A stretch of 54,062 nt of DNA. It comes from a virus (lineage: Duplodnaviria > Caudoviricetes). The stretch spans positions 1-54,062 of IMG/VR virus record IMGVR_UViG_3300044580_000329. One strand, written 5' to 3'. Made by a program: the position numbers and the translations under genes. Shown here piece by piece: positions 19,016 through 48,475 of this stretch (position 1 is its first letter; each line of letters begins with the position of its first letter). The notes beneath the pieces were generated by a model. That model saw only the letters and a list, made by a program, of their open reading frames with translations, did not search any database and was not told where the DNA came from.

Positions 19016-19028
19016 TAAGATTTTTATA

Positions 19029-19259: not shown

Positions 19260-19268
19260 AAAATTTAG

Positions 19269-19305
19269 AAGGGACAAAAATAAAACTTTGTCCCTTTATT
19301 TTTTT
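19269..19305 (+). terminator. Intrinsic terminator after Y-like RNAs 3-4
   Basis: AAGGGACAAA...TTTGTCCCTT followed by a T-run. Confidence 0.8.
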
Positions 19306-19320
19306 ATAATAAAATAAAAA

Positions 19321-19524: not shown

Positions 19525-19603
19525 AAATGTTAAAAAATGTTAAAAAATTTTTTACTGTCATAGAAAAGTATTATATTTGCTATGTAATTAAAAAACATAC
19601 ACT

Positions 19604-20784: not shown

Positions 20785-20910
20785 GAAAAAAGTACTCAAA
20801 AATTTTTTTATTTCAAAAATATGTGTTATAATTGCAACAGATTTAGTAAATTTTTGCACTAAATTAAAACTTTTTCAAACGAGTTCATAATATATAGAAA
20901 AAATCAACTG

Positions 20911-21018
20911 ATGCAGAAACAAGGTTTAAATATAGTCGTAGCGAATTGGGTGGCCAATGATGATAACAAAGGTCGTAGAGGAGTTATGCGTCCCGTTGAG
21001 GATATAATTGATTGGTGA
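20911..21018 (+). CDS. Putative attenuator leader peptide 1 (35 aa)
   Basis: MQKQGLNIVVANWVANDDNKGRRGVMRPVEDIIDW; lies between promoter motifs and a terminator ahead of the tRNA array and contains the antiterminator strand. Confidence 0.75.
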   Translation: MQKQGLNIVVANWVANDDNKGRRGVMRPVEDIIDW

Positions 21019-21075
21019 AACAACAACAATTAAGAATAAATCAACGGGAACTCTAAAGGTTCCCGTTTTTATTTT
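20991..21075 (+). promoter_or_regulatory. Antiterminator/terminator pair of attenuator 1
   Basis: Terminator AACGGGAAC(21043-51)/GTTCCCGTT(21059-67) plus T-run; TCCCGTTGA(20991-99) is the exact complement of TCAACGGGA(21041-49). Confidence 0.8.
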
Positions 21076-21102
21076 AAGTTCTTTGACATATTGCTTTCTT
21101 TC

Positions 21103-21173
21103 GCGGGTGTAGCACAGTGGTAGTGCAGGAGCCTTCCAAGCTTCTGACGTGAGTTCGATTCTCATCACCCGCT
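21103..21173 (+). tRNA. tRNA-Gly(TCC)
   Basis: GCGGGTG/CACCCGC, GGAGC-ctTCCaa-GCTTC. Confidence 0.92.
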
Positions 21174-21174
21174 C

Positions 21175-21290
21175 TAATTGCTGTAGTGACAGGAATGGGT
21201 TACTTCGTGCTAAATGGTTTAGCAATTGTCTTTTAAACAATGGTTGCGGTTCAAATCCGCCTGTTACCCTCCAAATTTTCTCAGTAATTA
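21175..21290 (+). ncRNA. Y-RNA-like RNA 5 enclosing tRNA-Lys-like D, anticodon and T arms
   Basis: TAATTGCTG/CAGTAATTA ends with TAGTGA, GTTACTTCG and TTTTCT motifs; inside are GCTA..TAGC, ATTGT-ctTTTaa-ACAAT and GCGG-ttcaaat-CCGC. Confidence 0.72.
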
Positions 21291-21293
21291 AAT

Positions 21294-21370
21294 GGTCTCT
21301 GGAGCTGCTAGGAGTGGCTGCCGGCCTGTCACGCCGGAACAACAGGAGGGTTCGAATCCCTTAGGGACCG
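21294..21370 (+). tRNA. tRNA-Asp(GTC), atypical D-arm
   Basis: GGTCTCT/AGGGACC, CCGGC-ctGTCac-GCCGG, G discriminator. Confidence 0.85.
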
Positions 21371-21465
21371 CTAACGCAGATAGCTGTTTAACAGCAAAAA
21401 CAGCTCTACAAAAAGTCGACTCATTGTAGAGAAGATACCGGTTAAAGTCCGCTAATGCTCCAATA

Positions 21466-21504
21466 AGTCCTACGCCGGGTGGACGGACTATAATAAAACT
21501 CGGC
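21466..21504 (+). ncRNA. Small H-type pseudoknot element
   Basis: S1 GTCC/GGAC, S2 GCCGGGT/ACTCGGC, A-rich linker ATAATAAA. Confidence 0.4.
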
Positions 21505-21509
21505 ATTTT

Positions 21510-21593
21510 AGGTCGTTAGCCTCAATGGTAAGGCACCGGTCTCCAAAACCGAGGTTGGAGTATTCCATGGGAGTTCGAATCTTCCACGACCTG
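21510..21593 (+). tRNA. tRNA-Trp(CCA) with long variable arm
   Basis: AGGTCGT/ACGACCT, CGGT-ctCCAaa-ACCG, extra hairpin TGGA-gtat-TCCA. Confidence 0.85.
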
Positions 21594-21656
21594 CTAATCA
21601 AAACTTTATATTAGAGTTCAAAAACTTTTATCCTGCTTGAATATATAAAATAAAAA

Positions 21657-22577
21657 ATGGATAGCGTTTGTATAATTTGTGGTTCGAAAAATTTTAAAAT
21701 TAAAAGTAATAGATTTTGTTCTCAAGAATGTATTCATCAGTATGGAACACAAAAGATGAATGAAAAAATTAAATGTAGAATTTGCGATAAAGAAATTTCT
21801 AAAGCCAATTATAATAAGCATCTAAAAACTCATGAAATTAAAAAACATCACTATTTTTGTGAAAATTGTGGCAAAGAAGTTTATGAAAAATATGGTTCAG
21901 GGAGATTTTGCTCTTCTAAATGTGCCAGAGGATTTAGTACAAAAAATAAAAGAGAGCAGATAAATAAAAAAGTTAGTGAAAAAATAAAACAAAAAATATC
22001 TAACGGAGAAAAAATAGGTTTTTGTACTTCAGGTAGATTAGTTAAATTAGAAAATAAAGTTTGCCCTATTTGTGGAAATAATTTTAAAGCTGATGAAAAA
22101 TTTGGTAAAAAAACTTGTTCAAAAGAATGTTCTCATAAGGCTACTGCTTTAAACAATAAAGGAAAAAAACACAATATCAAAGATACTTCAAGAATGGGAG
22201 GTCTTAGACCTGGGGGTGGAAAGTCAAAACAAATTTCTTATACAAATTGGTTAGGATATAAAATGTCTTTGAATAAAGAAGAAATTGAAGTAGCTAAAGT
22301 ACTTGATGAAAAAAAATTAAACTGGAATAGAAATAGAAAAGGTTTTCCATATTTAACACGGGACGGTAAACAAAGAAAATATTACCCGGATTTTGTAATA
22401 AATGATAATGAATACATTGAATATAAAGGGTGGGTAACTTCCGAAATGGAATGGAAAATGGAAAATGCAAAAGCAAATAATAATCTTAATTTAATTATAA
22501 TAGTTGGAAACGATAAAAGATATAAAGAGTTTGGAATATCTTTGCACGAATATTTAGATAGTAAATTTTTTCTATAG
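21657..22577 (+). CDS. Putative homing endonuclease: Cys-rich zinc fingers plus PD-(D/E)xK nuclease domain
   Basis: Repeated CxxC...RFCS..C motifs; YYPDF...IEYKG; inserted in the tRNA array behind ATATATAAAA. Confidence 0.8.
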   Translation: MDSVCIICGSKNFKIKSNRFCSQECIHQYGTQKMNEKIKCRICDKEISKANYNKHLKTHEIKKHHYFCENCGKEVYEKYGSGRFCSSKCARGFSTKNKREQINKKVSEKIKQKISNGEKIGFCTSGRLVKLENKVCPICGNNFKADEKFGKKTCSKECSHKATALNNKGKKHNIKDTSRMGGLRPGGGKSKQISYTNWLGYKMSLNKEEIEVAKVLDEKKLNWNRNRKGFPYLTRDGKQRKYYPDFVINDNEYIEYKGWVTSEMEWKMENAKANNNLNLIIIVGNDKRYKEFGISLHEYLDSKFFL

Positions 22578-22639
22578 GAGACTCTTAAAATGGAAAGATA
22601 CCGCGCATAGAGACGGCGGTTAATGCCTATAGGAAATTC

Positions 22640-22713
22640 GGGCTGTTAGCTCAGTTGCCTAGAGCGCCTGATTTGCACCCAGGAGGTCAAGGGTTGGAAT
22701 CCCTTACGGTCCA
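22640..22713 (+). tRNA. tRNA-Ala(TGC)
   Basis: GGGCTGT/ACGGTCC with G3:U70, loop ttTGCac. Confidence 0.88.
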
Positions 22714-22773
22714 CTACGACAGACTGTTAGATTTTCATAGTAACCGTGACGACGGGTTTCATAGAAAATTAAC

Positions 22774-22847
22774 GCCTTCGTGGCGCAATTGCGTAGCGCT
22801 ACTCCCTCTTAAGGAGAAGGTTAAGGGTTCGAGTCCCTTCGGAGGCA
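22774..22847 (+). tRNA. tRNA-Lys(CTT)
   Basis: GCCTTCG/CGGAGGC, CTCC-ctCTTaa-GGAG. Confidence 0.88.
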
Positions 22848-22855
22848 CAAATGCC

Positions 22856-22962
22856 GGATGATACACTGTTTTATCGCAGTGCCGGCTCCAAGGGCGATAC
22901 GTGGTGGTTGGTTGCCGGCCCCACCCAGTTGGTTATCATGGGTTCGATCCCCATATCGTCCA
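22856..22962 (+). ncRNA. Aberrant tRNA-like RNA with canonical T-arm and two alternative acceptor 5' strands
   Basis: ATGGG-ttcgatc-CCCAT-ATCGTCC-A; both GGATGAT (22856) and GGGCGAT (22892) can pair with ATCGTCC; no 7-nt anticodon loop. Confidence 0.55.
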
Positions 22963-22967
22963 CAAAT

Positions 22968-23044
22968 AGTGCGTTAGTTCAGTTGGTTAGAATATCAGAC
23001 TGTCACTCTGAGGGTCGCGAGTTCGAGTCTCGTACGCACTGCCA
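22968..23044 (+). tRNA. tRNA-Asp(GTC)
   Basis: AGTGCGT/ACGCACT, TCAGA-ctGTCac-TCTGA, encoded CCA. Confidence 0.93.
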
Positions 23045-23048
23045 TAGA

Positions 23049-23153
23049 ATCTGTAGTAAGAATAGAGTTTCATCGTGGTAAACATTGGTTCGAATCCAAT
23101 CGTGGCCGCCAAAAACTGGCTATGAAAAAAAGCTCTTTTCAATTTTCTCAGAT
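23049..23153 (+). ncRNA. Y-RNA-like RNA 6 with T-arm and loop-closed acceptor-like stem (YrlA-like)
   Basis: ATCTG-TAGTAA-GAATAGAG-TTTCATCG ... ATTGG-ttcgaat-CCAAT-CGTGGCC..GGCTATG ... CTCTTTTC-AATTTTCT-CAGAT. Confidence 0.75.
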
Positions 23154-23193
23154 CAATTTTTTTGCTTATATTAGCTTATTAAATTAGCCACAT

Positions 23194-23265
23194 GGGGATA
23201 TAGCTCAGAGGTAGAGCGCTTGCCTGTTAAGCAAAGGGTCGGGATTTCGAAATTCTCTATCCCCG
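23194..23265 (+). tRNA. tRNA-Asn(GTT)
   Basis: GGGGATA/TATCCCC, TTGC-ctGTTaa-GCAA. Confidence 0.87.
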
Positions 23266-23279
23266 CAAATTTTCAAACA

Positions 23280-23534
23280 ATGGATGAATTATTACAAATT
23301 ATCGAAAGATTAAAGGAAGAAAACGAAGAGTTGAAATCAAAATTGATTGATCTTACGTTTGAAATGAATTACAGCAAAGAGGTAGAGTTAATTGAATTTC
23401 TTCGTTCAATTTATTCAAGCATTCAGGAGGAAATGAACTTCAAAACCAGAAGTAAATTATCAAAGAGCCAAATGCTCTATAGTTTGAAAAAGAATATTGA
23501 AGAATTTGCTAAGAATAACAAAATATCATTATGA
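23280..23534 (+). CDS. Hypothetical coiled-coil protein
   Basis: Start moved to MDELLQ, downstream of tRNA-Asn. Confidence 0.6.
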   Translation: MDELLQIIERLKEENEELKSKLIDLTFEMNYSKEVELIEFLRSIYSSIQEEMNFKTRSKLSKSQMLYSLKKNIEEFAKNNKISL

Positions 23535-23914
23535 AACTTTACCGATACAGCGTTACATCTTGGCATCACGGAGCAATTCCTCATGTTGAATTACAAGATT
23601 ACGAAGTTATACGAGAAACAAAGCAAGGATATTGGGTACACCAGTATTTTGGAAGTGAGAAAAAATGGGTATCTAAAGATGGATTAAGAAGATTTGCATT
23701 TCCAACCAAGTACCAGGCGATGCAGAACTTTATAAAACGAACAGAAAAACGAGTAAAATATTTAGAAATAGATTTACAGGCTTGTCAATTAGGTTTGGAA
23801 TCAGCAAAAAGAATACAGGAAGAAATTTCAGAAGATGACGATGTGATAACATTACATCATATTTTAAAACTGCGGGGTGGGGCAGCGGTAGCTCGAGAGG
23901 CTCATAACCTCTAG
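23531..23914 (+). CDS. Hypothetical phage protein
   Basis: YEVIRETKQGYWV...KKWV....RRFAFPT..A; the 3' end overlaps tRNA-fMet. Confidence 0.65.
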   Translation: MKLYRYSVTSWHHGAIPHVELQDYEVIRETKQGYWVHQYFGSEKKWVSKDGLRRFAFPTKYQAMQNFIKRTEKRVKYLEIDLQACQLGLESAKRIQEEISEDDDVITLHHILKLRGGAAVAREAHNL

Positions 23915-23942
23915 GTCGGGGGTTCGAATCCCTCCTCCGCTA
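23871..23942 (+). tRNA. tRNA-fMet(CAT), initiator-like
   Basis: TGCGGGG/CTCCGCT with 1:72 mismatch, AGAGG-ctCATaa-CCTCT. Confidence 0.85.
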
Positions 23943-23947
23943 CAAAT

Positions 23948-24078
23948 GGCGAGAAAGTTTAGAAAAAATGACTCTTATTGGCTTTCTCATTTCGATGTAG
24001 TAATTATGGGGGTTTCATCGGAAAAACGTCAAGCTCATAACTTGAAGATCATAGGTTCAAATCCTATTCTCGCCGCCA
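23948..24078 (+). ncRNA. tRNA-Met(CAT)-like RNA with a circularly permuted Y-RNA module in the D-loop (Y-like RNA 7)
   Basis: GGCGAGA/TCTCGCC-G-CCA, D-stem GTTT/AAAC, TCAAG-ctCATaa-CTTGA, ATAGG-ttcaaat-CCTAT; the 63-nt D-loop contains TTTCT-CAT-ttcg-ATG-TAGTAA...GTTTCATCG. Confidence 0.78.
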
Positions 24079-24080
24079 TT

Positions 24081-24153
24081 GACCTCGTAACTCAGTTGGT
24101 AGAGTACAACACTTTTAATGTTGGAGTCGAGAGTTCGAGTCTCTCCGGGGTCA
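24081..24153 (+). tRNA. tRNA-Lys(TTT)
   Basis: GACCTCG/CGGGGTC, CAACA-ctTTTaa-TGTTG. Confidence 0.93.
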
Positions 24154-24158
24154 CAAAC

Positions 24159-24240
24159 GCTCTTATCTTACTTAAAAAAGGAAAGATACCGGCATTAGTT
24201 TTTAAGGCCGGAGATATGGGTTCGAATCCCATTAGGAGCT
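24159..24240 (+). ncRNA. tRNA-like RNA with a 13-nt anticodon loop
   Basis: GCTCTTA/TAGGAGC, CCGGC-attagtttttaag-GCCGG, ATGGG-ttcgaat-CCCAT. Confidence 0.65.
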
Positions 24241-24249
24241 CTAAAATTT

Positions 24250-24322
<73 letters not shown>

Positions 24323-24400
24323 CACTGGATGCCTATGCCGAGGGAGGTTTGTTCCCTGATTTGAGGGCTATTATCAAAGTGCGGGCATGAAATCCTTTAA

Positions 24401-24478
24401 GGAAGATTAGCTCAGTTGGTTCAGAGCATTTGCCTTACAAGCAAGGGGTCGTGGGTTCGAATCCCTCATCTTCCACCA
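24401..24478 (+). tRNA. tRNA-Val(TAC)
   Basis: GGAAGAT/ATCTTCC, TTGC-ctTACaa-GCAA, encoded CCA. Confidence 0.94.
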
Positions 24479-24529
24479 TATGAAAGGAATGAGCTTTCCG
24501 ATTAGACAACAAATGAACAAGCATGATTG

Positions 24530-24797
24530 GCAATTTTGTGAAGTAGAAAGAGGCTTGCATCCAACGCAAAAACCAGTTAAATTGTGTGAATATTTTATTA
24601 AAACATACACAAACGAAAATGAATTAATTTTAGATAATTGTTTTGGAAGCGGAAGTACATTTATAGCGTGCATAAATACAAATCGCAATTTTATAGGTTT
24701 TGAACTGAATCAAAAATATTATAATATTGCAAAAAACAGGATAAATCAACATATTATAGACAATAATTTGCAAGATAAATATAAGTTAATTGCATAA
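24530..24797 (+). pseudogene. C-terminal fragment of an N6/N4 DNA methyltransferase
   Basis: HPTQKPV...LILDNCFGSGST...FIGFEL, fused in frame to the duplicated C39 start. Confidence 0.8.
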
Positions 24798-24817
24798 TTT
24801 TTGAATAAAACTGCGAT

Positions 24818-25591
24818 TTGATTGAAAATATTAATATAAAAGTGAGGAATTATATGGAACATATAAAAATAAATAATAGTTTATACATAAATGCAAATTG
24901 TTTATTTATAATGCAAAAAATGATTCAAAATAATGAAATGGTTGATTGTATAATTGTTGACCCACCTTATGGTATCAATCATCATAGCAATAGAAGAAAA
25001 GATAAAAAAAATTCTATTACTAAAAAAGGTATAATAAATGACAACAATAACCAAGAATTACTAAAACAAGCAATTGATTTATCATATCAGTGTTTAAAAA
25101 ATAATTCGCATATTTACTGGTTTACAAGATGGGATAAATTAGAAGAACACCTTCCTATGTTAAGAAATTATTATAATATTAAGAATATTCTTATATGGGA
25201 TAAAGGCAATCATGGTAGTGGTGATTTGACAGGTGCTTATGGTAATAGATATGAATGTATTATATATGGAATGAAAGGTAGACGTGATTTAAATAAGATT
25301 AATGGAAAACAAAGACACGATGATATACTTACATATTCAAAAGTACCTGCACAAAAATTAATTCATCCACATCAAAAACCTATAGGTTTATTAGAATTTT
25401 TAATACTAAAATCCACTAATGAAGGAGATATAATTCTTGATATGTTTGCAGGAGTAGGTAGTACATTAGTTGCAGCGATAAAAAATAAAAGAGAATGTAT
25501 TGCTATTGAATTAGATAGTAATATATATAAAAAAGGCAAGGAAAGACTTAATAATGAAGGTTTGAAATTACATATATATAAAGTTAGTTAA
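24818..25591 (+). CDS. N6-adenine/N4-cytosine DNA methyltransferase (beta class)
   Basis: DPPY precedes HPHQKP and DMFAGVGST; the true start is probably a slightly later Met. Confidence 0.92.
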   Translation: MIENINIKVRNYMEHIKINNSLYINANCLFIMQKMIQNNEMVDCIIVDPPYGINHHSNRRKDKKNSITKKGIINDNNNQELLKQAIDLSYQCLKNNSHIYWFTRWDKLEEHLPMLRNYYNIKNILIWDKGNHGSGDLTGAYGNRYECIIYGMKGRRDLNKINGKQRHDDILTYSKVPAQKLIHPHQKPIGLLEFLILKSTNEGDIILDMFAGVGSTLVAAIKNKRECIAIELDSNIYKKGKERLNNEGLKLHIYKVS

Positions 25592-25641
25592 TGCATAATA
25601 TTAATATAAAAGTGTTATTTGATTTAAAAAGGAGTGATTGT

Positions 25642-25986
25642 GTGAAAAGTCCAATTAAATGGGTAGGTGGAAAATCTAAGTTAGCAAGAATTATTTTACC
25701 TATGTTTCCCAAGCATGATGGTTATGTGGAAGTATTTGGTGGCAGTGCTTATATGTTATTTTCTAAAGAACCAAGTAAATGGGAAGTTTTAAATGATTAT
25801 GATAGCAATCTAATGAATTTTTGGTCAGTGATAAAAAATGCACCAGACCAATTTATAGATAGTTTTAATTATATTTTAGTAAGTAGAGAAACTTTTAATA
25901 TATATAAACAAAAATACAAGAATAATGATTTTAATGATAATATAGAAAAAGCACATGTATTTTATTATTTAGTTAAAGCTGGATTT
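25642..25986 (+). pseudogene. N-terminal fragment of a Dam-family adenine methyltransferase
   Basis: SPIKWVGGKSKLA, YVEVFGGSA, EVLND; truncated at the second 44-bp repeat, with no DPPY. Confidence 0.8.
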
Positions 25987-25989
25987 GGA

Positions 25990-26486
25990 ATGAGCTTTCC
26001 GATTAGACAACAAATGAACAAGCATGATTGTTCGGTGTGTGTCATTTGGTGCATACTCCGACATGCTGAAATTGATATTAATTATTTAGATTTATATCGA
26101 TTTATTAGTCCTCCTACAAAACCGGATGAAGGGATTTCTGGAGATCAAATAATAAAAATACTTAAGAAATTCGGAATTAAAACTATTTCTGAAAGAAGCA
26201 ACATTTCAAAACTAAGATTTTACACAACCAAGTGGCCTGTAATAGTTAGTATACAACATAAAAAGAAAGGAATGTTGAATGGAAACATATAACAGAATTC
26301 GGACATTATGTAATTGTCTTAGAAGTAAATGATAAAAAGGTGAGATTCATGGATCCGAATTATGGAAAGATAAGGTCTTTAAATATTAAAGATTTTAAAG
26401 ACAGATGGCATGATGGAGATGAAAATGAACTTTGTAAATACCCAGCAATCATATGTATGGTAAATGAATCGAAATCTGTATTTTAA
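25990..26486 (+). CDS. C39-family cysteine peptidase, frameshifted near 26265
   Basis: RQQMNKHDC, PVIV, then in the shifted frame FGHYVIV...VRFMDPNYG...F...W; the shift falls in an A-run. Confidence 0.75.
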
Positions 26487-26778
26487 GGATGGTGTTCTTT
26501 TTGCTAAGGGTTACGAAAGAGTGGTTCATGGAGGGTGAGGAGATTATATAGAGTTAACTAAAGATCAAATAGTTGTAGAACTTAGATCAAAATTTAAACA
26601 GTCACTTCCAGAAGCCATTTCTGACGAGCCCTTTTATTATTACTGGTTAGTTCCAATTGGAAGAGATGAAAAGATTTATTGACAGTGTAGAACCGTAAAT
26701 TATGCGGATTACAAAATAGGATATTATTATATAAGCCCTAAGTTAATTATACCATTTGATAATACAGAATTATTTTAA
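26464..26778 (+). pseudogene. 104-codon ORF with two in-frame TGA codons
   Basis: MNRNLYFKDGVLFAKGYERVVHGG*GDYIEL...KIY*QCRTVNYADYKIGYYYISP; TGA at 26536 and 26680; fills an otherwise empty gap. Confidence 0.65.
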
Positions 26779-26790
26779 TAAATAAGATAT

Positions 26791-27150
26791 ATGGAAGACA
26801 AAGATTTAGATATTAGAATCACTCGGGGGTCAGGCCCAGGAGGACAACATAAGAACAAGGTGGAAACTTGCGTTATTATAACTCATATTCCAACTGGTTT
26901 ACAAGAGAAGTGTCAAGAAACCCGTAGTAAAATTCAGAATCTTGAACTTGCTAAAGAAAGAATTAAAGCGAAAGTGGAGAAACTACAAGAGCAAAAAATT
27001 CAAGAAGCAAAAAATGAGCGTAGACGTGAATTAATTAAAAACCAGAAAGTAGTTCGTACATATAACTTTGTAAGAAATGAAGTTTATGATCATCGAACAA
27101 AAACAAAACACGATCTAAAAAAGTTTATGAGAGGAGAAATTGATCTATGA
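26791..27150 (+). CDS. GGQ peptide-chain-release-factor-like protein lacking the codon-recognition domain
   Basis: RGSGPGGQHKNKVET...THIPTG...RS..QN, then RF1-like VRTYNF...VYDHR. Confidence 0.9.
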   Translation: MEDKDLDIRITRGSGPGGQHKNKVETCVIITHIPTGLQEKCQETRSKIQNLELAKERIKAKVEKLQEQKIQEAKNERRRELIKNQKVVRTYNFVRNEVYDHRTKTKHDLKKFMRGEIDL

Positions 27151-27315
27151 AACTTACACTCGAAAAAGATTTAAAAGTTGCTGTTGAAGTAAATGGTGCT
27201 AAATTCATTGGATCTGAAGAAGGAGTTTTATATCAAAGCATTACAGATACTGAAATTTTACTTTATATTAAGTCAGAACCTGAAGGAAAGGAAATAAAAA
27301 TTAAAATAGCAAAAG

Positions 27316-27513
27316 ATGTTAATAATCAAGGTGCATGAGGGAGAAAATATTGACAAAGCCCTTAAGAGATTTAAAAGAAAATTTAACATGATTGGAATTG
27401 CCAGTGAATTGCGTGAAAGAGAACAATTCATAAAGCCTTCTGTAAAAAAGAGACAAGTAAAACAGAAAGCTAAGTACAAACAATACATGCAAAGGAAAGA
27501 AGAAATGGAATAG
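27316..27513 (+). CDS. rpsU: Ribosomal protein bS21
   Basis: MLIIKVHEGENIDKALKRFKRKF.....ELRERE.F.KPSVKKR. Confidence 0.93.
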   Translation: MLIIKVHEGENIDKALKRFKRKFNMIGIASELREREQFIKPSVKKRQVKQKAKYKQYMQRKEEME

Positions 27514-27519
27514 CATAAT

Positions 27520-27595
27520 GGTTCGGTAGCTCAATGGATAGAGCAACAGCCTTCTAAGCTGTCGGTTGAGCGTTCGAGTCGCTCCCGAATCACCA
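27520..27595 (+). tRNA. tRNA-Arg(TCT)
   Basis: GGTTCGG/CCGAATC, ACAGC-ctTCTaa-GCTGT, CCA. Confidence 0.93.
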
Positions 27596-27611
27596 ATTTA
27601 AATTTTCATTT

Positions 27612-28084
27612 ATGACAGCACTTTATATTATAATGTTAACCATATTTGTTGGTTATATTTCATGGATATGGGCTAGATACCATCAATTTCCCATAGTTAT
27701 TATTCACTTCCCAACAACCTAAAATTGATATTTACATTATGGTGTTGGGGGTATGCTTTTCCAGCAATAATTGTTGCATCAACACCCTTAATGTTTTTCG
27801 CTGGTGCGGGAATTTGTTTTGTTGGTGCGGCAGCCGCTTATCGAGAAAAAATGACTGAGACTGTTCATATAATTGGAGCAGCAGCAGCCATTCTTTTTAG
27901 TCAATTATCTATCATAATAGATTTTCATATGTGGTATATCACTGTTGCTTTTGCAGCAATTGCTTTACCACTTGCCTTAACAAGATTTTCAAAGAAAGGA
28001 ATATGTCCAAATAGAACTTGGTGGGTTGAAATTTTAGCATTTATAACAATAGCTTTAGTATTAGGAATAAAATTATGGTCGTAA
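27612..28084 (+). CDS. Multi-pass membrane protein, frame break near 27680
   Basis: ATG at 27612 (MTALYIIML...), continuing as PSISHSYYSLP...FTLWCW...RTWWVEI in another frame. Confidence 0.55.
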
Positions 28085-28350
28085 AGTTAGTATCATATGA
28101 TGGTTCATATCCGAACTTATGTAGCGGTAAGTTAGTTATTTCTGTTGATGAAAAGGAATGGGTTTTTCCATCACACTGTTTATCAAGCGGTGGTAGCGTA
28201 TGGTTTGACGATCATTGGAGTGAACATGTTGAAGATGGTCCTTGGGGTGTAGGTGAATGGCCTGAAGGTTTTCCTGAAGAAGCTAAGGAAGAAGCTTTAA
28301 GCGTTATTAACGAAGGTATTTCTTGGGGTTGTTGTGGAGGTTGTGTATGA
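28075..28350 (+). CDS. Conserved phage hypothetical protein
   Basis: YDGSYPNLCSG...SGG...GCCGGCV C-terminus. Confidence 0.65.
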   Translation: MVVKLVSYDGSYPNLCSGKLVISVDEKEWVFPSHCLSSGGSVWFDDHWSEHVEDGPWGVGEWPEGFPEEAKEEALSVINEGISWGCCGGCV

Positions 28351-28592
28351 CAGCACAAGAATACATAGATGCTTGGGATATAAGATGGGAAAATCATTTT
28401 AGATACTCTGTTTTAGTTGAAGAATTAAGTAATTTACAAGGAATTGATGTTGTTGCCCAGATGGAATCAGTTTTAATAGCAGAAATGAATAAAGAGGTCG
28501 ATAAACATATAAAAAACGATATACAGAGATTATTTAATATCAGTATACAACAAGCCGAAAAAATTAACACAATAGTAGATGGAATCTTATAA
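28347..28592 (+). CDS. Small protein resembling an internal segment of major capsid protein
   Basis: LQGIDVVAQMESVLIAEMNKEVDKHI versus QWGIDVIAMVENAGINEISQSINKHI in this window's capsid protein; ATGA-coupled start. Confidence 0.55.
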   Translation: MTAQEYIDAWDIRWENHFRYSVLVEELSNLQGIDVVAQMESVLIAEMNKEVDKHIKNDIQRLFNISIQQAEKINTIVDGIL

Positions 28593-29211
28593 TTCTATAC
28601 CAAAGTGGGGTGAAGATTATTTTGGCAAATATGTATTTGCATTTGACAAAATAGATGGTTCTAATTTCAGAGCGGAATGGAATAGAAAATTATCTAAAAA
28701 GTCCCGCTTTACACATGGGTTTGGTAAATTTGGAACTAGACAAGATAGGATAAAATTTATTAAAGACCCATATTGCGAAGGCATTGAAATATTTAAAAAC
28801 AAGTTTTCAGAAAAACTAGATAAAATATTTTTAGAAAACAAGGCATTTAGAAACATTGATAACATTACTGTATTTGGAGAATTTTATGGGTCTAAAAGCT
28901 TTGCTGGAATGCATGATTGGGGTGAAAAACATGATGTCAAAATTTTTGATGTGTTTTTAGACCGAAAAGGAATTTTGCCCCCATCTGATTTTATAAAAAT
29001 ATTTGAAGGTTTAGATACATGCAAACTTGTATTTGCTGGAATTTTTTCTCAAAGTTATTTAGAGTTAATTGAAAAAAATATATTAAATTTACAAGAAGGA
29101 GTTGTTTGTAAAGGAGTTGAAAACCAAGAGGTGTTCATGTTCAAAATAAAAACACTGAAATGGCTTCAGAAGGTAAGAGATTTATACGGTAATGAAAGAA
29201 CTGATTATTAG
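28579..29211 (+). CDS. RNA ligase-like nucleotidyltransferase
   Basis: Motif I FDKIDGSN, VFGEFYG, FDV, EGVV, FKIK. Confidence 0.82.
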   Translation: MESYNSIPKWGEDYFGKYVFAFDKIDGSNFRAEWNRKLSKKSRFTHGFGKFGTRQDRIKFIKDPYCEGIEIFKNKFSEKLDKIFLENKAFRNIDNITVFGEFYGSKSFAGMHDWGEKHDVKIFDVFLDRKGILPPSDFIKIFEGLDTCKLVFAGIFSQSYLELIEKNILNLQEGVVCKGVENQEVFMFKIKTLKWLQKVRDLYGNERTDY

Positions 29212-29458
29212 ATCAACAACTACAGTTGATGAACTTGTTCTTCAATGGGAAGCAAAACAAGAGTTACGATTTATTTTTGATGGGTTTCCTCAATTAAATA
29301 TACTTCGTCCAACTGCATCATTGATTGCAAATGATTTAGTTTCAGTACAACCAATGGCAGCTCCAACAGGCATATTACATTATGTTGACTATGTTTATAA
29401 TGGAACCCCTAATGAAAGGCAACATGATTGCGGAATTGAAAAAACTTTAAGTGAATGA
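29192..29458 (+). CDS. Small protein containing a gp23 Gol-region-like segment
   Basis: LIANDLVSVQPMAAPTGILHYVDYVY versus TVGFDIVNVVPMPGPTGVISYLDYVY in this window's capsid protein. Confidence 0.7.
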   Translation: MKELIIRSTTTVDELVLQWEAKQELRFIFDGFPQLNILRPTASLIANDLVSVQPMAAPTGILHYVDYVYNGTPNERQHDCGIEKTLSE

Positions 29459-29640
29459 AGAACTATAAATCTAAAAGAAAAGATTTAAGAGATCGAAAAA
29501 GAGAGATAATGGAAGTTGGATTTGACTCTTCAAAAGATAGAAAAAGAGTTGTTGAATCCTTTAAAAGAGAATCTCGTTCATTGAAAAGAAGTGAAAAGAA
29601 TTCTTTCAAGAATTCTTGGAGAAATGAATATGGTATTTAA

Positions 29641-29717
29641 GGCCTTATAGCTCAATTGGATAGAGCACCTGACTACGAATCAGGAGGTTATGGGTTCGAC
29701 TCCCGTTAAGGTCACCA
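29641..29717 (+). tRNA. tRNA-Arg(ACG)
   Basis: GGCCTTA/TAAGGTC, CCTGA-ctACGaa-TCAGG, CCA. Confidence 0.94.
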
Positions 29718-29719
29718 CA

Positions 29720-29793
29720 GCCTTCATAGCTCAATTGGATAGAGCATCTGACTTCGGATCAGATGGTTGAGGGTTCGAATCCTTCTGAGGGCG
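29720..29793 (+). tRNA. tRNA-Arg(TCG)
   Basis: GCCTTCA/TGAGGGC, TCTGA-ctTCGga-TCAGA. Confidence 0.93.
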
Positions 29794-30662
29794 CTTAATA
29801 TATAATAAGATGAGTGATAAACTTGAAAATTTGTTGGCTATTTTGTTCTGTGTCATATTTGCAATTAGTGTAGGAATATATTATTTTGTTAGTATGACTA
29901 TTGGGGGATGGATGGCCGGTTTGACGATTTGTTTGGGGATTTCATATATGTTAGCTCAATCATTTCGTTATGCTTGGATAAGTATCAAGCAACTATCAGA
30001 CCAAATTGATAGTTTAAAAAAATAAACAATATGGACGACGAGGGTGATAGTAAAAAAAGAAAAATTAGCAACTGTGTTTCTAATGTTAGGAACTTTCTTC
30101 AATCCATTAGGATACGATGCGCTATTGAAGGCTTTACTGGATTTGACAGGCAATTATTGGCTTTCAATTTCCGTTTTTTACCTTGTATCAGCTTGTTTCT
30201 TTACGTTATACTTTATATTTTCTAAAACAAATCCACTTGATTTATTTAGAAAAAAGAAAAAAATTATCCACTCATAAAAATATTCATAAAAATATTTTGA
30301 AAATTTGGAGTAAGTGGTGGATGGATGCCATGTAAAATGCCATTGAGCGGTGATAAAATAAGTTCAATTGGCGGTGCTCTTACTTACTACACACTTCCTG
30401 CAGACCAAGAAGGCTATTCTTATTATGCATCAGTGGGTGTTGCTTCTCAGGGCTACCGATATGAATTAACAAGTTCATGGGGATATGGCGAAGAAGCAAC
30501 TTTACCTATGACAATCATAATGGTTGGTTACAAATATGACAGCGGAGGAGTTAACTTTAAACTTGGTGGAGGTTATGGATGGTGTGAAGAAGCTGGTGCA
30601 TGGACATTTGAAGCAACATTGGGATTTACACTTTTCGGAAACTAATTTTTAAACATAAATTA

Positions 30663-34043: not shown

Positions 34044-34424
34044 ATGATCAGTATTGAATTTAGGGAACACATATTTAACGGTCTAAAATTTAAAAAATCT
34101 AATACATATTCCGATGATTATTTTGACCGTTTGAAGAATGAAGGCTCGCATTATAGCCAAATGAAATATTTGGATGCTGTCAATGATCAGCTAAACGAAC
34201 AAATTCACATAAAGTTATCATATTCAATAATTTCTAAGTTATTAGCTATCATATTTATAGTTATTGCTTTTATTTCATTTAAATTTTTCTGGCCATCAAT
34301 AATTTTAGCTTTTATTGCAATATTCTTTCAAATAATGTTTAATGTTTATCAACGAAGAGCGCAGGATTTATTTATGGGGAAGGAAATGAGTAGGGATTTA
34401 GTTGAATTAATTTTCTGTAAATAA
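34044..34424 (+). CDS. Hypothetical membrane protein
   Basis: Two TM segments; promoter-like TATATTAG upstream. Confidence 0.6.
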   Translation: MISIEFREHIFNGLKFKKSNTYSDDYFDRLKNEGSHYSQMKYLDAVNDQLNEQIHIKLSYSIISKLLAIIFIVIAFISFKFFWPSIILAFIAIFFQIMFNVYQRRAQDLFMGKEMSRDLVELIFCK

Positions 34425-34496
34425 ATCTCAAAAAATTTTTTAGATTCAAAAACTTTTTATATTTTTGCGTATATATAATAAAAGAATTTTTATAGA

Positions 34497-34571
34497 ATGA
34501 AGCGTCATAGCATACATATCAGTTCGATTAGCTCAACCGAAAGTTGTCTGTGGCCTTCTTATGTAAATTGA
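34497..34571 (+). CDS. Putative attenuator leader peptide 2 (24 aa)
   Basis: MKRHSIHISSISSTESCLWPSYVN; directly precedes a terminator and the Thr/Ser/Ile/His tRNAs. Confidence 0.8.
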   Translation: MKRHSIHISSISSTESCLWPSYVN

Positions 34572-34628
34572 AGTACTAACTTTAAAAATTAAGGGAAGGC
34601 CTAAAAAGACCTTCCCTTTTTTGTTTTA
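34552..34628 (+). promoter_or_regulatory. Antiterminator/terminator pair of attenuator 2
   Basis: Terminator AAGGGAAGG(34591-99)/CCTTCCCTT(34610-18) plus T-run; GGCCTTCTT(34552-60) pairs with GGGAAGGCC(34593-601). Confidence 0.8.
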
Positions 34629-34629
34629 T

Positions 34630-34705
34630 GCTCTTTTAGCTCAGTAGGTAGAGTACTTCCTTGGTAAGGAAGAGGTCTTGGGTTCGACCCCCAAAAAGAG
34701 CTCCA
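34630..34705 (+). tRNA. tRNA-Thr(GGT)
   Basis: GCTCTTT/AAAGAGC, CTTCC-ttGGTaa-GGAAG, CCA. Confidence 0.93.
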
Positions 34706-34722
34706 AAAATGTTCTTTGAAAT

Positions 34723-34809
34723 GGAGGTACGTATTTGGTGTGCTACGCTGCCTTGAAAGCAGTGAGGTCGATGAGAGTCGGCGTGTGGGTTCGAGTCCCT
34801 CTGCCTCCG
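34723..34809 (+). tRNA. tRNA-Ser(TGA), atypical D-arm
   Basis: GGAGGTA/TGCCTCC-G, GCTGC-ctTGAaa-GCAGT, long variable arm GTCGAT..GTCGGC. Confidence 0.82.
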
Positions 34810-34817
34810 CACAATAT

Positions 34818-34894
34818 TGGGATGTATCCCCTCTGTCTTATACACAGTAGAAAGGGTAGTTGGTTGCACATGGGTTCGATCCCCATCTTCCCAA
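34818..34894 (+). tRNA. Non-canonical tRNA-Ile(TAT)-like RNA without a normal D-arm
   Basis: TGGGATG/CTTCCCA-A, CTGT-ctTATac-ACAG enclosed by TATCC/GGGTA, canonical T-arm ATGGG-ttcgatc-CCCAT. Confidence 0.65.
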
Positions 34895-34932
34895 CAAATT
34901 TTGGTTAGCACGCATAGATATATAAAATAAAA

Positions 34933-35595
34933 ATGAACTGCAAATTTTGTAATAAGGAAATTAATAATAAAGGAGGATTGGTAAAACATGAAAACGGATG
35001 TTCTTTAAACCCTGAAAAAATATCATATAGGTCTAATTTTATAGAGTATAATCAAAAAGTAAGGACGGGGGAGATACAAGGAAAAAATCAATATATTACA
35101 GCTAAAGAACGAGGAGAAAAATGGGTGATGCCCAAAGAGGCAATTGAAAAAAATAGACAAAAACATTTAGGAAAACCTCTTAGTAAAGAACACAAAGAAA
35201 TATTATCATTTAAAAGATCTAAGGTAATAGAAGAATTAGGAAAGGGCGGATTTAAACATATCAAATGGTATAAAATTAAAAATATATTCGAAGAAGAATT
35301 TATAGTAAGGGGAAGTTGGGAACTCAAAGTTGCAAAGATCTTAAATAAAGAAAATATTATATGGAGAAGAAAAATTTACTTGAAATATAAAGATAACGAA
35401 GGAGTCATTAGAACATATACGCCAGATTTTTATTTGGTAGAAAGAGATCTTTATATAGAAGTTAAAGGATATTTTAGCATAAAAGATAGGAAAAAAATGA
35501 AAAATGTCTTAAGAGATAATAATATAAATTTAATTATTATTGATAAAAAAATTATAAATGACGAAGAAAAGATATTAAAAATGATAAATTCCTGA
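34933..35595 (+). CDS. Putative homing endonuclease, PD-(D/E)xK type
   Basis: N-terminal CKFC..H...C, RGSWE, YTPDFY....YIEVKG; located in the tRNA array behind ATATATAAAA. Confidence 0.82.
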   Translation: MNCKFCNKEINNKGGLVKHENGCSLNPEKISYRSNFIEYNQKVRTGEIQGKNQYITAKERGEKWVMPKEAIEKNRQKHLGKPLSKEHKEILSFKRSKVIEELGKGGFKHIKWYKIKNIFEEEFIVRGSWELKVAKILNKENIIWRRKIYLKYKDNEGVIRTYTPDFYLVERDLYIEVKGYFSIKDRKKMKNVLRDNNINLIIIDKKIINDEEKILKMINS

Positions 35596-35673
35596 CGTGG
35601 ATGAGTGGTTTAGTCACCTGGCTGATATCCAGGGCTCTCAAAAGCGACGTAGGTTCGAATCCTGCCGTCAGGA
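35591..35673 (+). tRNA. tRNA-Ile(GAT) with long variable arm
   Basis: CCTGACG/CGTCAGG-A, CCTGG-ctGATat-CCAGG, extra GCT-ctcaaa-AGC hairpin. Confidence 0.82.
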
Positions 35674-35679
35674 CAAAAT

Positions 35680-35770
35680 GGAGAGTTGCCAGAGTGGTCT
35701 ATCGGGGCAGCCTGCTAAGCTGTTGAACGCGATATGTGTTCCGTGAGTTCGAACCTCACACTCTCCGCCA
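35680..35770 (+). tRNA. tRNA-Ser(GCT)
   Basis: GGAGAGT/ACTCTCC-G-CCA, loop ctGCTaa, long variable arm. Confidence 0.93.
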
Positions 35771-35831
35771 CTGAAAACGATGCTAAAGTTATCCCTGTTT
35801 TAAGTAGCGGAAGTTTTAGGGATGACAAACT

Positions 35832-35921
35832 GGAGAGTTGGCAGAGTTGGTCTATTGCGGCAGCCTGGAAAGCTGTGATCGAGAGATTGGTCCGTGGGTT
35901 CGAATCCCGCACTCTCCGCCA
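35832..35921 (+). tRNA. tRNA-Ser(GGA)
   Basis: GGAGAGT/ACTCTCC-G-CCA, loop ctGGAaa. Confidence 0.93.
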
Positions 35922-35924
35922 TAC

Positions 35925-36000
35925 GGTGGTATTAGTGTTTAACGGTTAGCACGCAAGTCTGTGGAACTTGTAGTGAAGGGTTCGAATCCCACATACCACC
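35925..36000 (+). tRNA. tRNA-His(GTG)
   Basis: G-1:C73, GTGGTAT/ATACCAC, CAAGT-ctGTGga-ACTTG. Confidence 0.92.
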
Positions 36001-36054
36001 AAGTGGGCAAAATTGCCCCTTCTAGACTGGATATATACATAAAACAATATATCC

Positions 36055-36699
36055 ATGTCTAGAAGTAAAATAAAATTTCATTATATTTATAAAACAACAT
36101 GTTCTATAACAAATAGATATTATTATGGAATGCATTCTACTTATAATATTGATGATGAATATTTAGGTTCGGGAAAAAGATTAAGATATTCCATAAGAAA
36201 ATATGGAAAAGAAAATCATAAAAAAGAAATAATTGAATTTTGTAAAGATAAATTGGAATTAAAAGAGAGAGAATTTAAAATAATAAATGAAGAATTATTG
36301 AATGACCCATTGTGTATGAATTTACAACCGGGCGGCGGGGGAGGATGGAGTAGTGAAATGCAAAGTCAAAATGGTATTAGAGGTAATGCCAGAATGAAAT
36401 GGCTTTGGGAAAATAATGAAGATTGGAAAAACAATTTATCATCTAAGCGTTCTAATTATATGGTAACTTCTTATAAAAGTGGAATCAGAATCCCAAACCC
36501 CCCAAATTGGATAGGAAGAAAACATAAAGAAGAAACCAAACAAAAAATAGGTTTTTCAAATTCAATAAAACAACTTGGGCAAAAAAATTCACAATATGGA
36601 ACTCATTGGATAACAAACGGAGTTCAAAATAAAAAAATTAATAAAAATTGCGATATTCCTGCAGAATGGTACTTAGGTAGAATAGTTAAAAATTGTTAA
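36055..36699 (+). CDS. GIY-YIG-type (Seg-like) homing endonuclease with NUMOD3
   Basis: YIYKTT....RYYYGMHST...YLGSG, MNLQPGG, GRKHKEETKQKIG. Confidence 0.9.
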   Translation: MSRSKIKFHYIYKTTCSITNRYYYGMHSTYNIDDEYLGSGKRLRYSIRKYGKENHKKEIIEFCKDKLELKEREFKIINEELLNDPLCMNLQPGGGGGWSSEMQSQNGIRGNARMKWLWENNEDWKNNLSSKRSNYMVTSYKSGIRIPNPPNWIGRKHKEETKQKIGFSNSIKQLGQKNSQYGTHWITNGVQNKKINKNCDIPAEWYLGRIVKNC

Positions 36700-47419: not shown

Positions 47420-48475
47420 GTGAAAATCATACTCTCATTAGATGGCGGCGGAATACGAGGAATTGTTCCAGCCGCCGTCTTGGCTTATCTAGAAGATCGA
47501 ATTCAAAATATAATGCATGATAGACGATTAAGAATTGCCAACTTAGTAGATTTTGTTGCAGGCACCTCTTCTGGTTCTATCATCGGTGGATTAATGATTA
47601 TTCCTCAAACAACCAAAAATAATTATGTTACCACTTTATATACTATGTGGGAAATTGTCCAAATGTATTTTGAATTTGGAGGACAAGTATTTAAAAAGAA
47701 TAATTTTTGGTATGATGTGAAAACCGTTTGGGGATTATTTGGTCCCAGATTCCCTGAGAGTAATATAGAGGCGCCTTTGCTTCAATATATGAATCACTAT
47801 AAGCTAAAGGATTTATTAAAACCTTGCATGTTTAGTGGGTATGATATAGATAAAAGAAAGGTAATATTTTATACAAACGCAGATGAACATCAGTTATATT
47901 CAGATTATTATCTAAAGGACGTTGTCCGCGGATCTGCATCTGTTCCATCTATATTTCCTCCAGCTTATTTTAATGAAGGAATTCATGTTAATACAATCAT
48001 TGACGGGGGGGTCTTTGCCAACAATCCTGCTTTAGCAGCATATATGGAAGTTTCTAAAACGATATTTAAAGGAGACACTCAACCAAAGAATTACGGAACC
48101 CAGGATATAATGATGATTTCTTTAGGAACCGGAGATTATTCTAAAAAATCATTCCCATATAATAAAACCAAAAAATGGGGGTCAGCGCAATGGACTGTTC
48201 CTGCATTAGATATGGTAGCAACATCCAATTCAGAAGTTACTCATTATCAAATGGAAAAAATATTCGCCACTACAAATTCTCTACAAAATTATAAAAGAAT
48301 TAATCCTCCAATATTATTAGGTTCAACAAATTCCCTTGATGCATCTAAAGATAACTTATGTAAACTATTAAAGGATGCCCAAAATTATACAAAGCAAAAT
48401 AAAGATATGCTAGAACAATTAGCAAGGCAAATTTGCGATATAAAGGGAATCCATAATTGGGACGACGTCGATTAA
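47420..48475 (+). CDS. Patatin-like phospholipase
   Basis: ILSLDGGGIRG, GTSSG, DGGVFANNP. Confidence 0.93.
   Translation: MKIILSLDGGGIRGIVPAAVLAYLEDRIQNIMHDRRLRIANLVDFVAGTSSGSIIGGLMIIPQTTKNNYVTTLYTMWEIVQMYFEFGGQVFKKNNFWYDVKTVWGLFGPRFPESNIEAPLLQYMNHYKLKDLLKPCMFSGYDIDKRKVIFYTNADEHQLYSDYYLKDVVRGSASVPSIFPPAYFNEGIHVNTIIDGGVFANNPALAAYMEVSKTIFKGDTQPKNYGTQDIMMISLGTGDYSKKSFPYNKTKKWGSAQWTVPALDMVATSNSEVTHYQMEKIFATTNSLQNYKRINPPILLGSTNSLDASKDNLCKLLKDAQNYTKQNKDMLEQLARQICDIKGIHNWDDVD

Follow-up and report, generated by a model that had tools for sequence, protein, structure and literature searches.

Two open questions are how phage tRNA genes are regulated and for what reason they are so numerous in large phages; compensation for codon usage, replacement of degraded host tRNAs and escape from anticodon nucleases have all been put forward. 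The questions are posed by a locus in a 54,062-nucleotide (nt) stretch of viral DNA (Duplodnaviria; Caudoviricetes; IMG/VR record IMGVR_UViG_3300044580_000329, positions 1 to 54,062; hereafter the window), in which a 24-codon open reading frame (ORF) and a terminator hairpin stand immediately ahead of an array of tRNA genes for Thr, Ser, Ile and His. We propose that this leader and its terminator are likely a translation-sensing (ribosome-mediated, leader-peptide) transcription attenuator that gates the phage tRNA array. The features on which the proposal is based are observed in silico: the ORF, its codon run, the terminator, mutually exclusive RNA pairings that are conserved and co-vary, and leaders whose composition co-varies with that of the arrays. 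The coordinates are collected in Table 1.

The leader starts at the first ATG past a promoter-like motif, 18 nt after TATATAAT, and, like most genes of the window, has no Shine-Dalgarno (SD) sequence. Exactly as an initial annotation of this DNA had written, codons 4-14 are 11 consecutive His, Ser, Ile or Thr (H/S/I/T) codons; all three Ile codons are among them, and five of the six Ser codons (AGC, AGT, TCG, TCA and TCT, but not TCC) occur in the leader. It is the only H/S/I/T run of at least 8 codons in the three plus-strand frames of the window, and hence the longest there; with these residues making up 0.24 of six-frame codons, simple arithmetic puts the expected number of such runs well under 0.01 per window. 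Under strict wobble rules, 10 of the 11 codons of the run are cognate to array tRNAs called by ARAGORN, and the eleventh, ATA, fits a tRNA-like sequence with a TAT anticodon. Over the whole leader the figure is 12/23 codons, against a background of 0.16 in long ORFs, and none of 5000 random same-length windows of long ORFs reaches it. Seven downstream anticodons had been listed in the initial annotation; six of them (GGT, TGA, GAT, GCT, GGA and GTG) are called by ARAGORN, while the TAT anticodon belongs to an atypical, sub-threshold tRNA-like sequence that the program does not call. At the same site a 96%-identical relative, G001, has a canonical tRNA-Ile(tat), and the odd TAT sequence is also kept in a relative with 71% capsid identity (G005, L049, minus strand), just upstream of tRNA-Thr-ggt.

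Table 1. Features of the studied module and of its sibling (window coordinates; regions 1 to 4 are the strands of the alternative RNA pairings).
Feature	Position	Strand	Details
Promoter-like bipartite motif	34449-34479	+	AAAACTTT, 15-nt spacer, TATATAAT
Leader ORF	34497-34571	+	ATG 34497, 24 codons and TGA (34569-34571); reads MKRHSIHISSISSTESCLWPSYVN
Regulatory run, codons 4-14	34506-34538	+	CAT AGC ATA CAT ATC AGT TCG ATT AGC TCA ACC = HSIHISSISST
Region 1	34499-34512	+	pairs with region 2 in the ribosome-free fold (candidate 'protector' hairpin)
Region 2	34545-34560	+	antiterminator strand; core GGCCTTCTT (34552-34560, codons 19-22), ends 9 nt before the stop codon
Small spacer hairpin	34568-34585	+	between region 2 and terminator, overlaps the stop codon; from folds
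Intrinsic terminator hairpin	34591-34618	+	region 3 = 34591-34601 (AAGGGAAGGCC), region 4 = 34608-34618 (GACCTTCCCTT); 12 pairs (as scored on the complementary strand), -15.5 kcal/mol
Terminator U-run	34617-34628	+	TTTTTTGTTTTA; ends 2 nt before tRNA-Thr
tRNA-Thr (GGT)	34630-34705	+	first gene of the array; ARAGORN
tRNA-Ser (TGA)	34723-34810	+	ARAGORN; Rfam scores best as long-arm tRNA
Atypical tRNA-like sequence (TAT, Ile)	34818-34894	+	CTTATAC anticodon loop; T arm, no normal D arm; Rfam tRNA 28.0 bits (gathering 29), E 0.003
ORF, 220 amino acids, inserted in array	34933-35595	+	own TATATAAAATAAAAATG start context; Pfam Phage_endo_I weak (E 2.4e-4, below cut-off); possibly a homing endonuclease
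tRNA-Ile (GAT)	35591-35674	+	ARAGORN
tRNA-Ser (GCT)	35680-35770	+	ARAGORN
tRNA-Ser (GGA)	35832-35921	+	ARAGORN
tRNA-His (GTG)	35925-36001	+	ARAGORN
Sibling promoter motif	20867-20896	+	bipartite motif
Sibling leader	20911-21018	+	reads MQKQGLNIVVANWVANDDNKGRRGVMRPVEDIIDW
Sibling region 2	20990-20998	+	GTCCCGTTG
Sibling terminator	21043-21067	+	hairpin
Sibling array	21103-29794	+	Gly-Asp-Trp-Ala-Lys-Asp-Asn-Met-Lys-Gly-Val(-Arg x3); three Arg tRNAs further on

Downstream of the leader, the terminator hairpin reads AAGGGAAGG-C-CU-AAAA-AG-A-CCUUCCCUU, followed by UUUUGUUUUA, and its U-run comes so close to tRNA-Thr that there is no room for a separate promoter between them. The end of the leader offers an alternative partner to this hairpin: GGCCUUCUU (34552-34560) pairs with the terminator 5' arm (34592-34601) with an energy of -15.6 kcal/mol, equalled by none of 500 dinucleotide shuffles, which upholds the earlier claim that codons 19-22 can sequester the 5' strand of the terminator. 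The region 34480-34630 folds with a z-score of -3.7, and none of 200 shuffles folds as well. In the minimum-energy fold of this region without a ribosome, 34499-34512 is paired with 34545-34558 and the terminator is formed. For a nascent RNA that has grown as far as 34604, the antiterminator is the structure of lowest energy, whether no ribosome is present or one is stalled at codon 10 or 14; masking of 34554-34583, as by a ribosome at the stop codon, prevents it from forming. These constrained folds of the nascent transcript bear out, in the model, the expectation that region 2 is free when a ribosome stalls upstream and covered when it reaches the stop. A stall at codon 6 lets the antiterminator win in full-length folds as well.

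The position of the hairpin, 11 nt from the 5' end of the tRNA, also invites the thought that translation of the leader is sensed while the output is something other than termination, be it processing by RNase P or RNase E, stability of the precursor (the 5' hairpin abuts tRNA-Thr) or the action of Rho on an untranslated leader. In E. coli, terminator hairpins beside tRNAs are reported to affect RNase P processing, and a conserved GTTCTTTGA motif is found ahead of several tRNAs. We consider such an output unlikely: every feature of an intrinsic terminator is present (a G+C stem, then six U, a G and four U), hairpin and T-run recur in all of the 15 modules compared below, and the competing pairing takes the 5' arm specifically, which is the design of an antiterminator.

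Taken as an attenuator, the module would work as follows. Transcription would start at a phage-type promoter near 34449-34479, and the first ATG, at 34497, would open the 24-codon leader, codons 4-14 of which would be read by the tRNA species encoded just downstream (Thr, three Ser, two Ile and His). When aminoacyl-tRNAs are plentiful, the ribosome would reach the TGA at 34569 and cover region 2 (34552-34560); with region 2 covered, regions 3 and 4 would form the terminator and RNA polymerase would halt 2-10 nt before tRNA-Thr. Should any of the cognate tRNAs become limiting, the ribosome would stall in the run, with region 1 covered and region 2 free; region 2 would pair with region 3 as this emerges, the terminator would be blocked, and the polymerase would read into the array. 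In the complete absence of translation, regions 1 and 2 would pair and termination would follow. The net effect would be a negative feedback by which phage tRNA synthesis follows the demand of translation. The shortage could arise from host shut-off, from mismatched codon usage or from defence systems whose anticodon nucleases cleave host tRNAs. From the arrangement of the locus we infer that the promoter is used, that the leader is translated and that ribosome and polymerase are coupled, as well as which way and how strongly the array would respond. As for the promoter, the motif AAACTTT-N11-18-ATATAWA occurs five times in the window, always on the plus strand, against 0.11 copies expected. 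It precedes both this leader (34450) and that of a sibling module (20867), as well as a gene at 21657, and the same motif is found ahead of the homologous leaders in relatives and of both leaders of the Lak-A1 phage discussed below. It probably acts as a promoter, with a start predicted some 10-20 nt before the leader ATG.

Nine related IMG/VR contigs (G001-G009) were found through the capsid protein, at 66-94% identity; searches with the exact tRNA-Thr pattern and with the upstream 126-amino-acid protein returned near-identical contigs only and were uninformative. A homologous module is present in seven of the nine, with leaders that read MKCHSIHISSISSTESCLWPSYVN (G001), MKRTIIHISSSIISHKCG (G002), MRRHSIHTTSIISSTDGTGLLV (G004), MKAINNISISITSSTTGTE (G005), MRRHSIHTISISTSSSDQAGLLVTQN (G007), MKGINYISTSVSTSSITGSG (G008) and MNTNLSISTSLINSTSTVPK (G009). 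The leader is absent where the array is absent: it is missing both from G003, which lacks such an array, and from G006, in which tRNA-Thr stands alone. The sibling module is conserved in six relatives, so that 15 modules could be compared, eight of the studied type (the window and seven relatives) and seven of the sibling type. Alignment of the leaders with MAFFT put the terminator 5' arm out of register, and per-sequence folds and duplexes, judged against shuffles, were used instead. A hairpin of -12 to -18 kcal/mol and a T-run follow the ORF in 15/15 modules, and in all 15 the terminator 5' arm has its best partner close to the stop codon (-35 to +15 nt), with 0-39 of 500 shuffles matching it (0, 0, 0, 5, 39, 1, 9 and 4 for the studied type; 12, 7, 34, 20, 0, 6 and 13 for the sibling type). 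Enrichment of cognate codons is likewise found in every module (empirical P from 0 to 64 in 5000). Moreover, region 2 co-varies with region 3, in the pairs GGCCTTCT/GGGAAGGCC, GACTTTCT/GGGAAAGTC, AGCCTTCTT/GGGAAGGCT and AATCTTTCTC/GGGGAAGATT, in GCTCTC with GGGAGC or GAGAGC, and in CTTCCTC with GAGGGAG, which amounts to at least four compensated variants of the pairing. Covariation in homologs, which the initial annotation had named as a check, is thus found between region 2 and the terminator 5' arm, with ORF and terminator kept; a terminator that persists where the ORF is lost is absent from the seven IMG/VR relatives and from 30 metagenome modules, the latter selected for a leader ORF.

These comparisons bear on two other accounts of the locus. 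Short ORFs are many in AT-rich phage DNA, and the hairpin, flanked by an A-run and a T-run, could terminate both ways; the ORF might then be a chance frame, the hairpin the terminator of an upstream operon or a bidirectional one, and the tRNAs the product of constitutive read-through. A chance frame would hardly vary in sequence and length among relatives with 66-94% capsid identity and yet retain the ATG and the H/S/I/T run, nor would its composition track that of the array. In the 15 modules, 227/389 codons of the ORF frame are cognate; the two alternative frames reach 97/374 and 99/374 and contain 29 and 47 stops, where the ORF frame has none. In addition, the upstream gene ends at 34424, 170 nt earlier, and the promoter motif lies between it and the leader ORF. 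Chance is therefore strongly disfavoured, and we rate it as highly improbable. The second account, a direct T-box-like sensor of uncharged tRNA with the run as a row of specifier triplets and no translation, could draw on the complementarity of the triplets to the downstream anticodons. Here it is the reading frame that speaks for an attenuator: a conserved ATG and stop set the frame in which the triplets lie, the codon signal is specific to that frame, and of the four leader substitutions between the window and G001 three are synonymous, fall in the run and leave the decoding tRNA unchanged. The region shows neither a stem I of the T-box kind nor a T-box sequence, nor do Rfam searches with E values up to 10 match it to a T-box or any other family: over 34400-36100 such a search returned no His_leader, Thr_leader, Leu_leader or Trp_leader, the only leader family listed being L20_leader at 20 bits against a gathering score of 58.7, and at the gathering score the whole window yields tRNA only. 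A sensor of this type seems to us exceedingly improbable.

A leader that senses the tRNAs encoded downstream should change with them, and the leaders do. In the IMG/VR set, tRNA-His is in the array behind all five leaders with His codons and behind none of the three without (G005, G008 and G009). G005 and G008 carry tRNA-His in the other array, and it is their sibling leaders (MIRMAKHMVNNW... and MIRTARHMKDVNW...) that have His codons, which the other five sibling leaders lack. The sibling leader of G007 contains three Phe codons and tRNA-Phe is the first gene of its array; that of G008 contains one Phe codon without a called tRNA-Phe. Within the window, the studied leader has 12/23 codons cognate to its own array against 5/23 to the sibling array, and the sibling leader, presumably the 'attenuator 1' of the initial annotation, 22/34 against 1/34; VVANWVANDDNKG in the latter is the longest G/D/W/A/K/N/V run on the plus strand of the window. 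In the complete genome of G005 (405 kb, with terminal repeats), the tRNAs, some 40 in number, are all confined to three arrays, and a leader plus terminator precedes every one of these; in the three-by-three comparison of leaders with arrays the cognate codons (17/6/4, 7/22/1 and 1/5/8) are dominated by the diagonal. Its leader of the studied type uses ATA (three times), TCG, TCA (twice), ACC, AGT, ACA (twice) and ACG, and the array behind it consists of Thr-ggt, two Thr-tgt, Ser-tga, Ser-cga, Ser-gct and Thr-cgt in addition to the odd TAT tRNA-like sequence. The third leader of this genome, MILKPTYSSFSQQLPQVSEQLPLCYFVKTEGIVKRR, precedes Cys-Gln-Phe-Leu-Leu-Leu-Pro-Tyr-Glu-Leu-Leu-(CTA suppressor)-Met-Gln, and a similar leader of the third type stands ahead of Gln-Leu-Pro-Tyr-Leu in G006.

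The same association is seen in metagenomes. A scan anchored on a conserved HD-hydrolase gene upstream of the leader gave 80 loci, of which 30 modules, with 23 distinct leaders, passed a filter for a run of at least 7 codons and a first tRNA within 900 nt; 13 of the leaders had at least 2.5 kb of downstream sequence. Among these 13, tRNA-His follows 10/10 leaders with His in the run and 0/3 without, and tRNA-Thr 11/11 with Thr and 0/2 without; Ile and Ser are in every run, and ARAGORN finds matching tRNAs in 9/13 and 11/13 cases, respectively. The antiterminator beats 95% of shuffles in 17 of the 23 distinct leaders and lies between -27 and +13 nt of the stop in 22, the outlier being L092 (-45 to -34 nt). 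Six of the loci dropped by the filter, L098, L099, L100, L106, L123 and L129, have H/S/I/T tRNAs. Leaders can be recognised in at least four of the six: they are interrupted in L106 and L129, and in L098 and L100 a leader reading MKNVVRISISISTSSTTGTE and a terminator lie some 1.1 kb upstream of the first tRNA called. In the remaining 44 loci, no more than one H/S/I/T tRNA is on the plus strand. The arrangement extends to the Prevotella phage Lak-A1 (MK250016.1), in which terminators abut the first tRNA of two arrays; its record carries no features, so that the modules are unannotated there. Leader MKTLNMTYGMHPVCGMVHMFPCGGGRPMSILECLKFSCMLQS precedes a His-Pro-Arg-Arg-Gly-Cys-Met array with 15/41 cognate codons, a count reached by none of 5000 random windows, and its terminator abuts tRNA-His. 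No tRNA was found in the 50 kb beside the Lak-A1 capsid gene, the arrays being elsewhere in the genome, and Flavobacterium phage immuto has four scattered tRNAs only.

It could be argued that the ORF encodes a functional micropeptide, or that the 130-nt transcript is a small RNA with a terminator of its own, and that neither has anything to do with tRNA control. Trans-acting leader peptides and attenuator RNAs are reported from other bacteria (peTrpL and rnTrpL of Sinorhizobium are examples), and the N-terminal MKRHSIH is fairly well conserved in one clade. The tails of the peptides are not conserved, and a peptide function leaves unexplained the match of residues to downstream tRNAs in three leaders of one genome, the gain and loss of His, Thr and Phe with the tRNA genes, and the complement of the terminator 5' arm near the stop codon. 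We regard this explanation as very unlikely.

Several observations weigh against the attenuator. When the full-length RNA is folded at equilibrium with a ribosome placed at codon 10 or 14, the terminator keeps the lowest energy; the switch would thus have to be kinetic, like that of classical attenuators. The match to the array is confined to the run and does not extend into the tail of the leader, hence the 12/23 codons overall. A Gly...Arg array in G006 has neither leader nor terminator directly upstream, and in G005, G008 and G009 the terminator is separated from the tRNAs by a promoter-like stretch, a small ORF and an RNase P-like RNA; control by the attenuator need not be exclusive in these three. 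Six of the 23 metagenome antiterminators are not better than the best 5% of shuffles (in L092, 121/300 shuffles match). The second leader of Lak-A1, ahead of a large Trp...Ser array, has 26/36 cognate codons, which is not significant (1199/5000) because that array covers common codons. ARAGORN overlooks intron-containing or odd tRNAs, which makes the array lists incomplete. Finally, the sequences are related, and some of the metagenome loci lie on contigs that are also in the IMG/VR set, so that the association counts do not represent independent events.

Leader-peptide attenuators are classical regulators of amino-acid operons in enterobacteria (trpL, hisL, thrL, ilvL/ivbL, leuL and pheL), and leaders for several amino acids are known among them (Thr and Ile in thrL; Ile, Leu and Val in ilvL). 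The phage module resembles them in its promoter-proximal short ORF with regulatory codons, in the predicted 2:3 (antiterminator) and 3:4 (intrinsic terminator) pairings, possibly with a 1:2 pairing as well, and in a stop codon so placed that the ribosome masks region 2. In contrast to them, it would control tRNA genes and not biosynthetic enzymes, and so regulate the very molecules that it senses; the genes regulated by known attenuators encode biosynthesis, transport or synthetase proteins, whereas those downstream here are tRNAs. The phage leaders also list from 4 to about 10 amino acids that mirror the array, are phage-encoded, lack an SD sequence, and divide the amino acids among several arrays of one genome. 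The pheM attenuator of pheST (phenylalanyl-tRNA synthetase) of E. coli is similar in that a component of the translation apparatus is placed under the supply of charged tRNA, but it is chromosomal and serves a protein gene and a single amino acid. T-box riboswitches (RF00230) likewise respond to the state of tRNA and, ahead of genes with a part in translation, form either a terminator or an antiterminator; they bind uncharged tRNA directly and independently of translation, whereas the phage signal is probably a translated ORF and matches no T-box model. The arrays themselves resemble the tRNA clusters of T4 and other large phages, including Lak, in which small ORFs and homing endonucleases are scattered among the tRNA genes. 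The number of tRNAs in Lak phages is given as 24-56, with introns in some of them, in the report on their genomes (PMC8346664), which contains no occurrence of 'attenuat', 'leader' or 'terminator'; the terms 'tRNA gene', 'tRNA operon' and 'phage' are absent from a genome-wide survey of attenuators. Searches over the main text of openly available articles brought up no account of tRNA genes controlled by leader-peptide attenuation. Judged from its sequence, the module as an application of classical ribosome-mediated attenuation to tRNA genes is strongly supported.

The window has a G+C content of about 33%, carries nearly all of its genes on the plus strand, and encodes a T4-type major capsid protein (51068-52825), a prohead protease, a Ro/TROVE RNA-binding protein and 25 tRNAs. 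A nucleotide search against named phages found none close, only tRNA-sized matches and one endonuclease-like match; by capsid protein, the Prevotella Lak megaphages are the nearest named relatives (47% identity), and by this measure the window is from a megaphage, kin of the Lak phages. An SD-like core precedes only 4/47 long ORFs of the window, which together with the Lak kinship suggests a host among the Bacteroidota. Public runs with the window sequence come from sludge, bioreactor and biogas metagenomes; part of the stretch is present in 18 entries from 9 studies, none of them recorded as RNA. The leader is the same in the four metagenome assemblies compared, which lack 1 nt at 34584 and, in a single case, have TA inserted after 34626; these assemblies (contigs only) show no informative variants, starts or ends.

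The arrays have further features. The points at which endonucleases are inserted differ among relatives, and arrays are therefore shuffled while the leaders persist; endonuclease-like ORFs in or beside the tRNA arrays of the window are found at 34933-35595, 36055-36699, 21657-22577 and 417-560, two of them following TATATAAAATAAAAATG. Many spacers of 70-150 nt occur inside the arrays (for example 21175-21293, 21372-21509, 22849-22967 and 24155-24249), and Rfam gives partial tRNA matches at 21209-21260 and 24008-24072; the spacers may conceal more tRNAs that are non-canonical or carry introns. The motif GTTCTTTGA(C/A)A has three exact copies in the window (21078-21086, 34711-34719 and 18779-18787), located between terminator and first tRNA or before tRNA-Ser(tga), and also follows terminators in relatives; it is too near the tRNAs for a -35 box and could be a processing or binding signal. 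In leaders of the sibling type a conserved CCCGTTGA falls in different reading frames in different phages, which indicates selection on RNA structure there. The sibling leaders of G002 and G003 end in TAG, and recoding of TAG would lengthen both; a tRNA with a CTA anticodon (an amber suppressor, labelled 'Pyl' by ARAGORN) is encoded in the Cys...Gln array of G005 (L063, reverse strand), and Lak phages are reported (PMC8346664) to read TAG as Gln.

Between attenuator and array, G005 carries a 180-nt sequence (L049:15913-16092, minus strand) that matches the archaeal-type RNase P RNA model with 44.7 bits (E 3e-11; gathering 84). RNase P-like sequences are also found in G003, G004, G007, G008 and G009, but not in the window; the 180-nt RNA may be a phage-encoded minimal RNase P RNA kept beside tRNA arrays. 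A small ORF upstream of Thr/Ser tRNAs in G006 and G009 (L051/L052 and L058) appears IF-1-like, by eye only. Near the tRNA region, the window encodes the Ro/TROVE-domain protein (7206-8885; Pfam E 7e-9; PHROG 'RNA-binding protein' E 1.5e-30) and a patatin-like phospholipase (47420-48472). Directly after a promoter motif at 18744 and a GTTCTTTGA motif, a stretch of about 600 nt (18720-19320) has no ORF of 60 or more amino acids and a terminator near its end, at about 19297; it may be an unknown non-coding RNA. An Rfam search by E-value of 1-7300 and 18650-19650 returned tRNAs only. At 4644-4740 there is a tandem duplication of about 44 nt (TATATAAATTATAAAATTGACTATCATGAAGTAGGTTGAAAAATTA) with promoter-like TATATAAA boxes.

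What the attenuator would mean for these phages goes beyond one array. On balance, we favour the view that Lak-related megaphages carry a codon-resolved 'tRNA homeostat', in which two or three leader peptides divide the amino acids among the arrays, each array, in some relatives together with an RNase P-like RNA, would be transcribed only when ribosomes stall for want of its tRNAs, and the leaders evolve with the gain, loss and relocation of tRNA genes. If this is true, the module would be the first case known to us of tRNA genes under leader-peptide control. It would establish a direct feedback loop between decoding capacity and tRNA synthesis, and would argue for phage tRNAs that are made on demand. 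The leader would also give a read-out, from sequence only, of the tRNAs that share one transcription unit, and such leaders could serve synthetic biology as compact, programmable sensors of 'tRNA shortage'. The system would range from sludge megaphages to the gut Lak phages of Prevotella.

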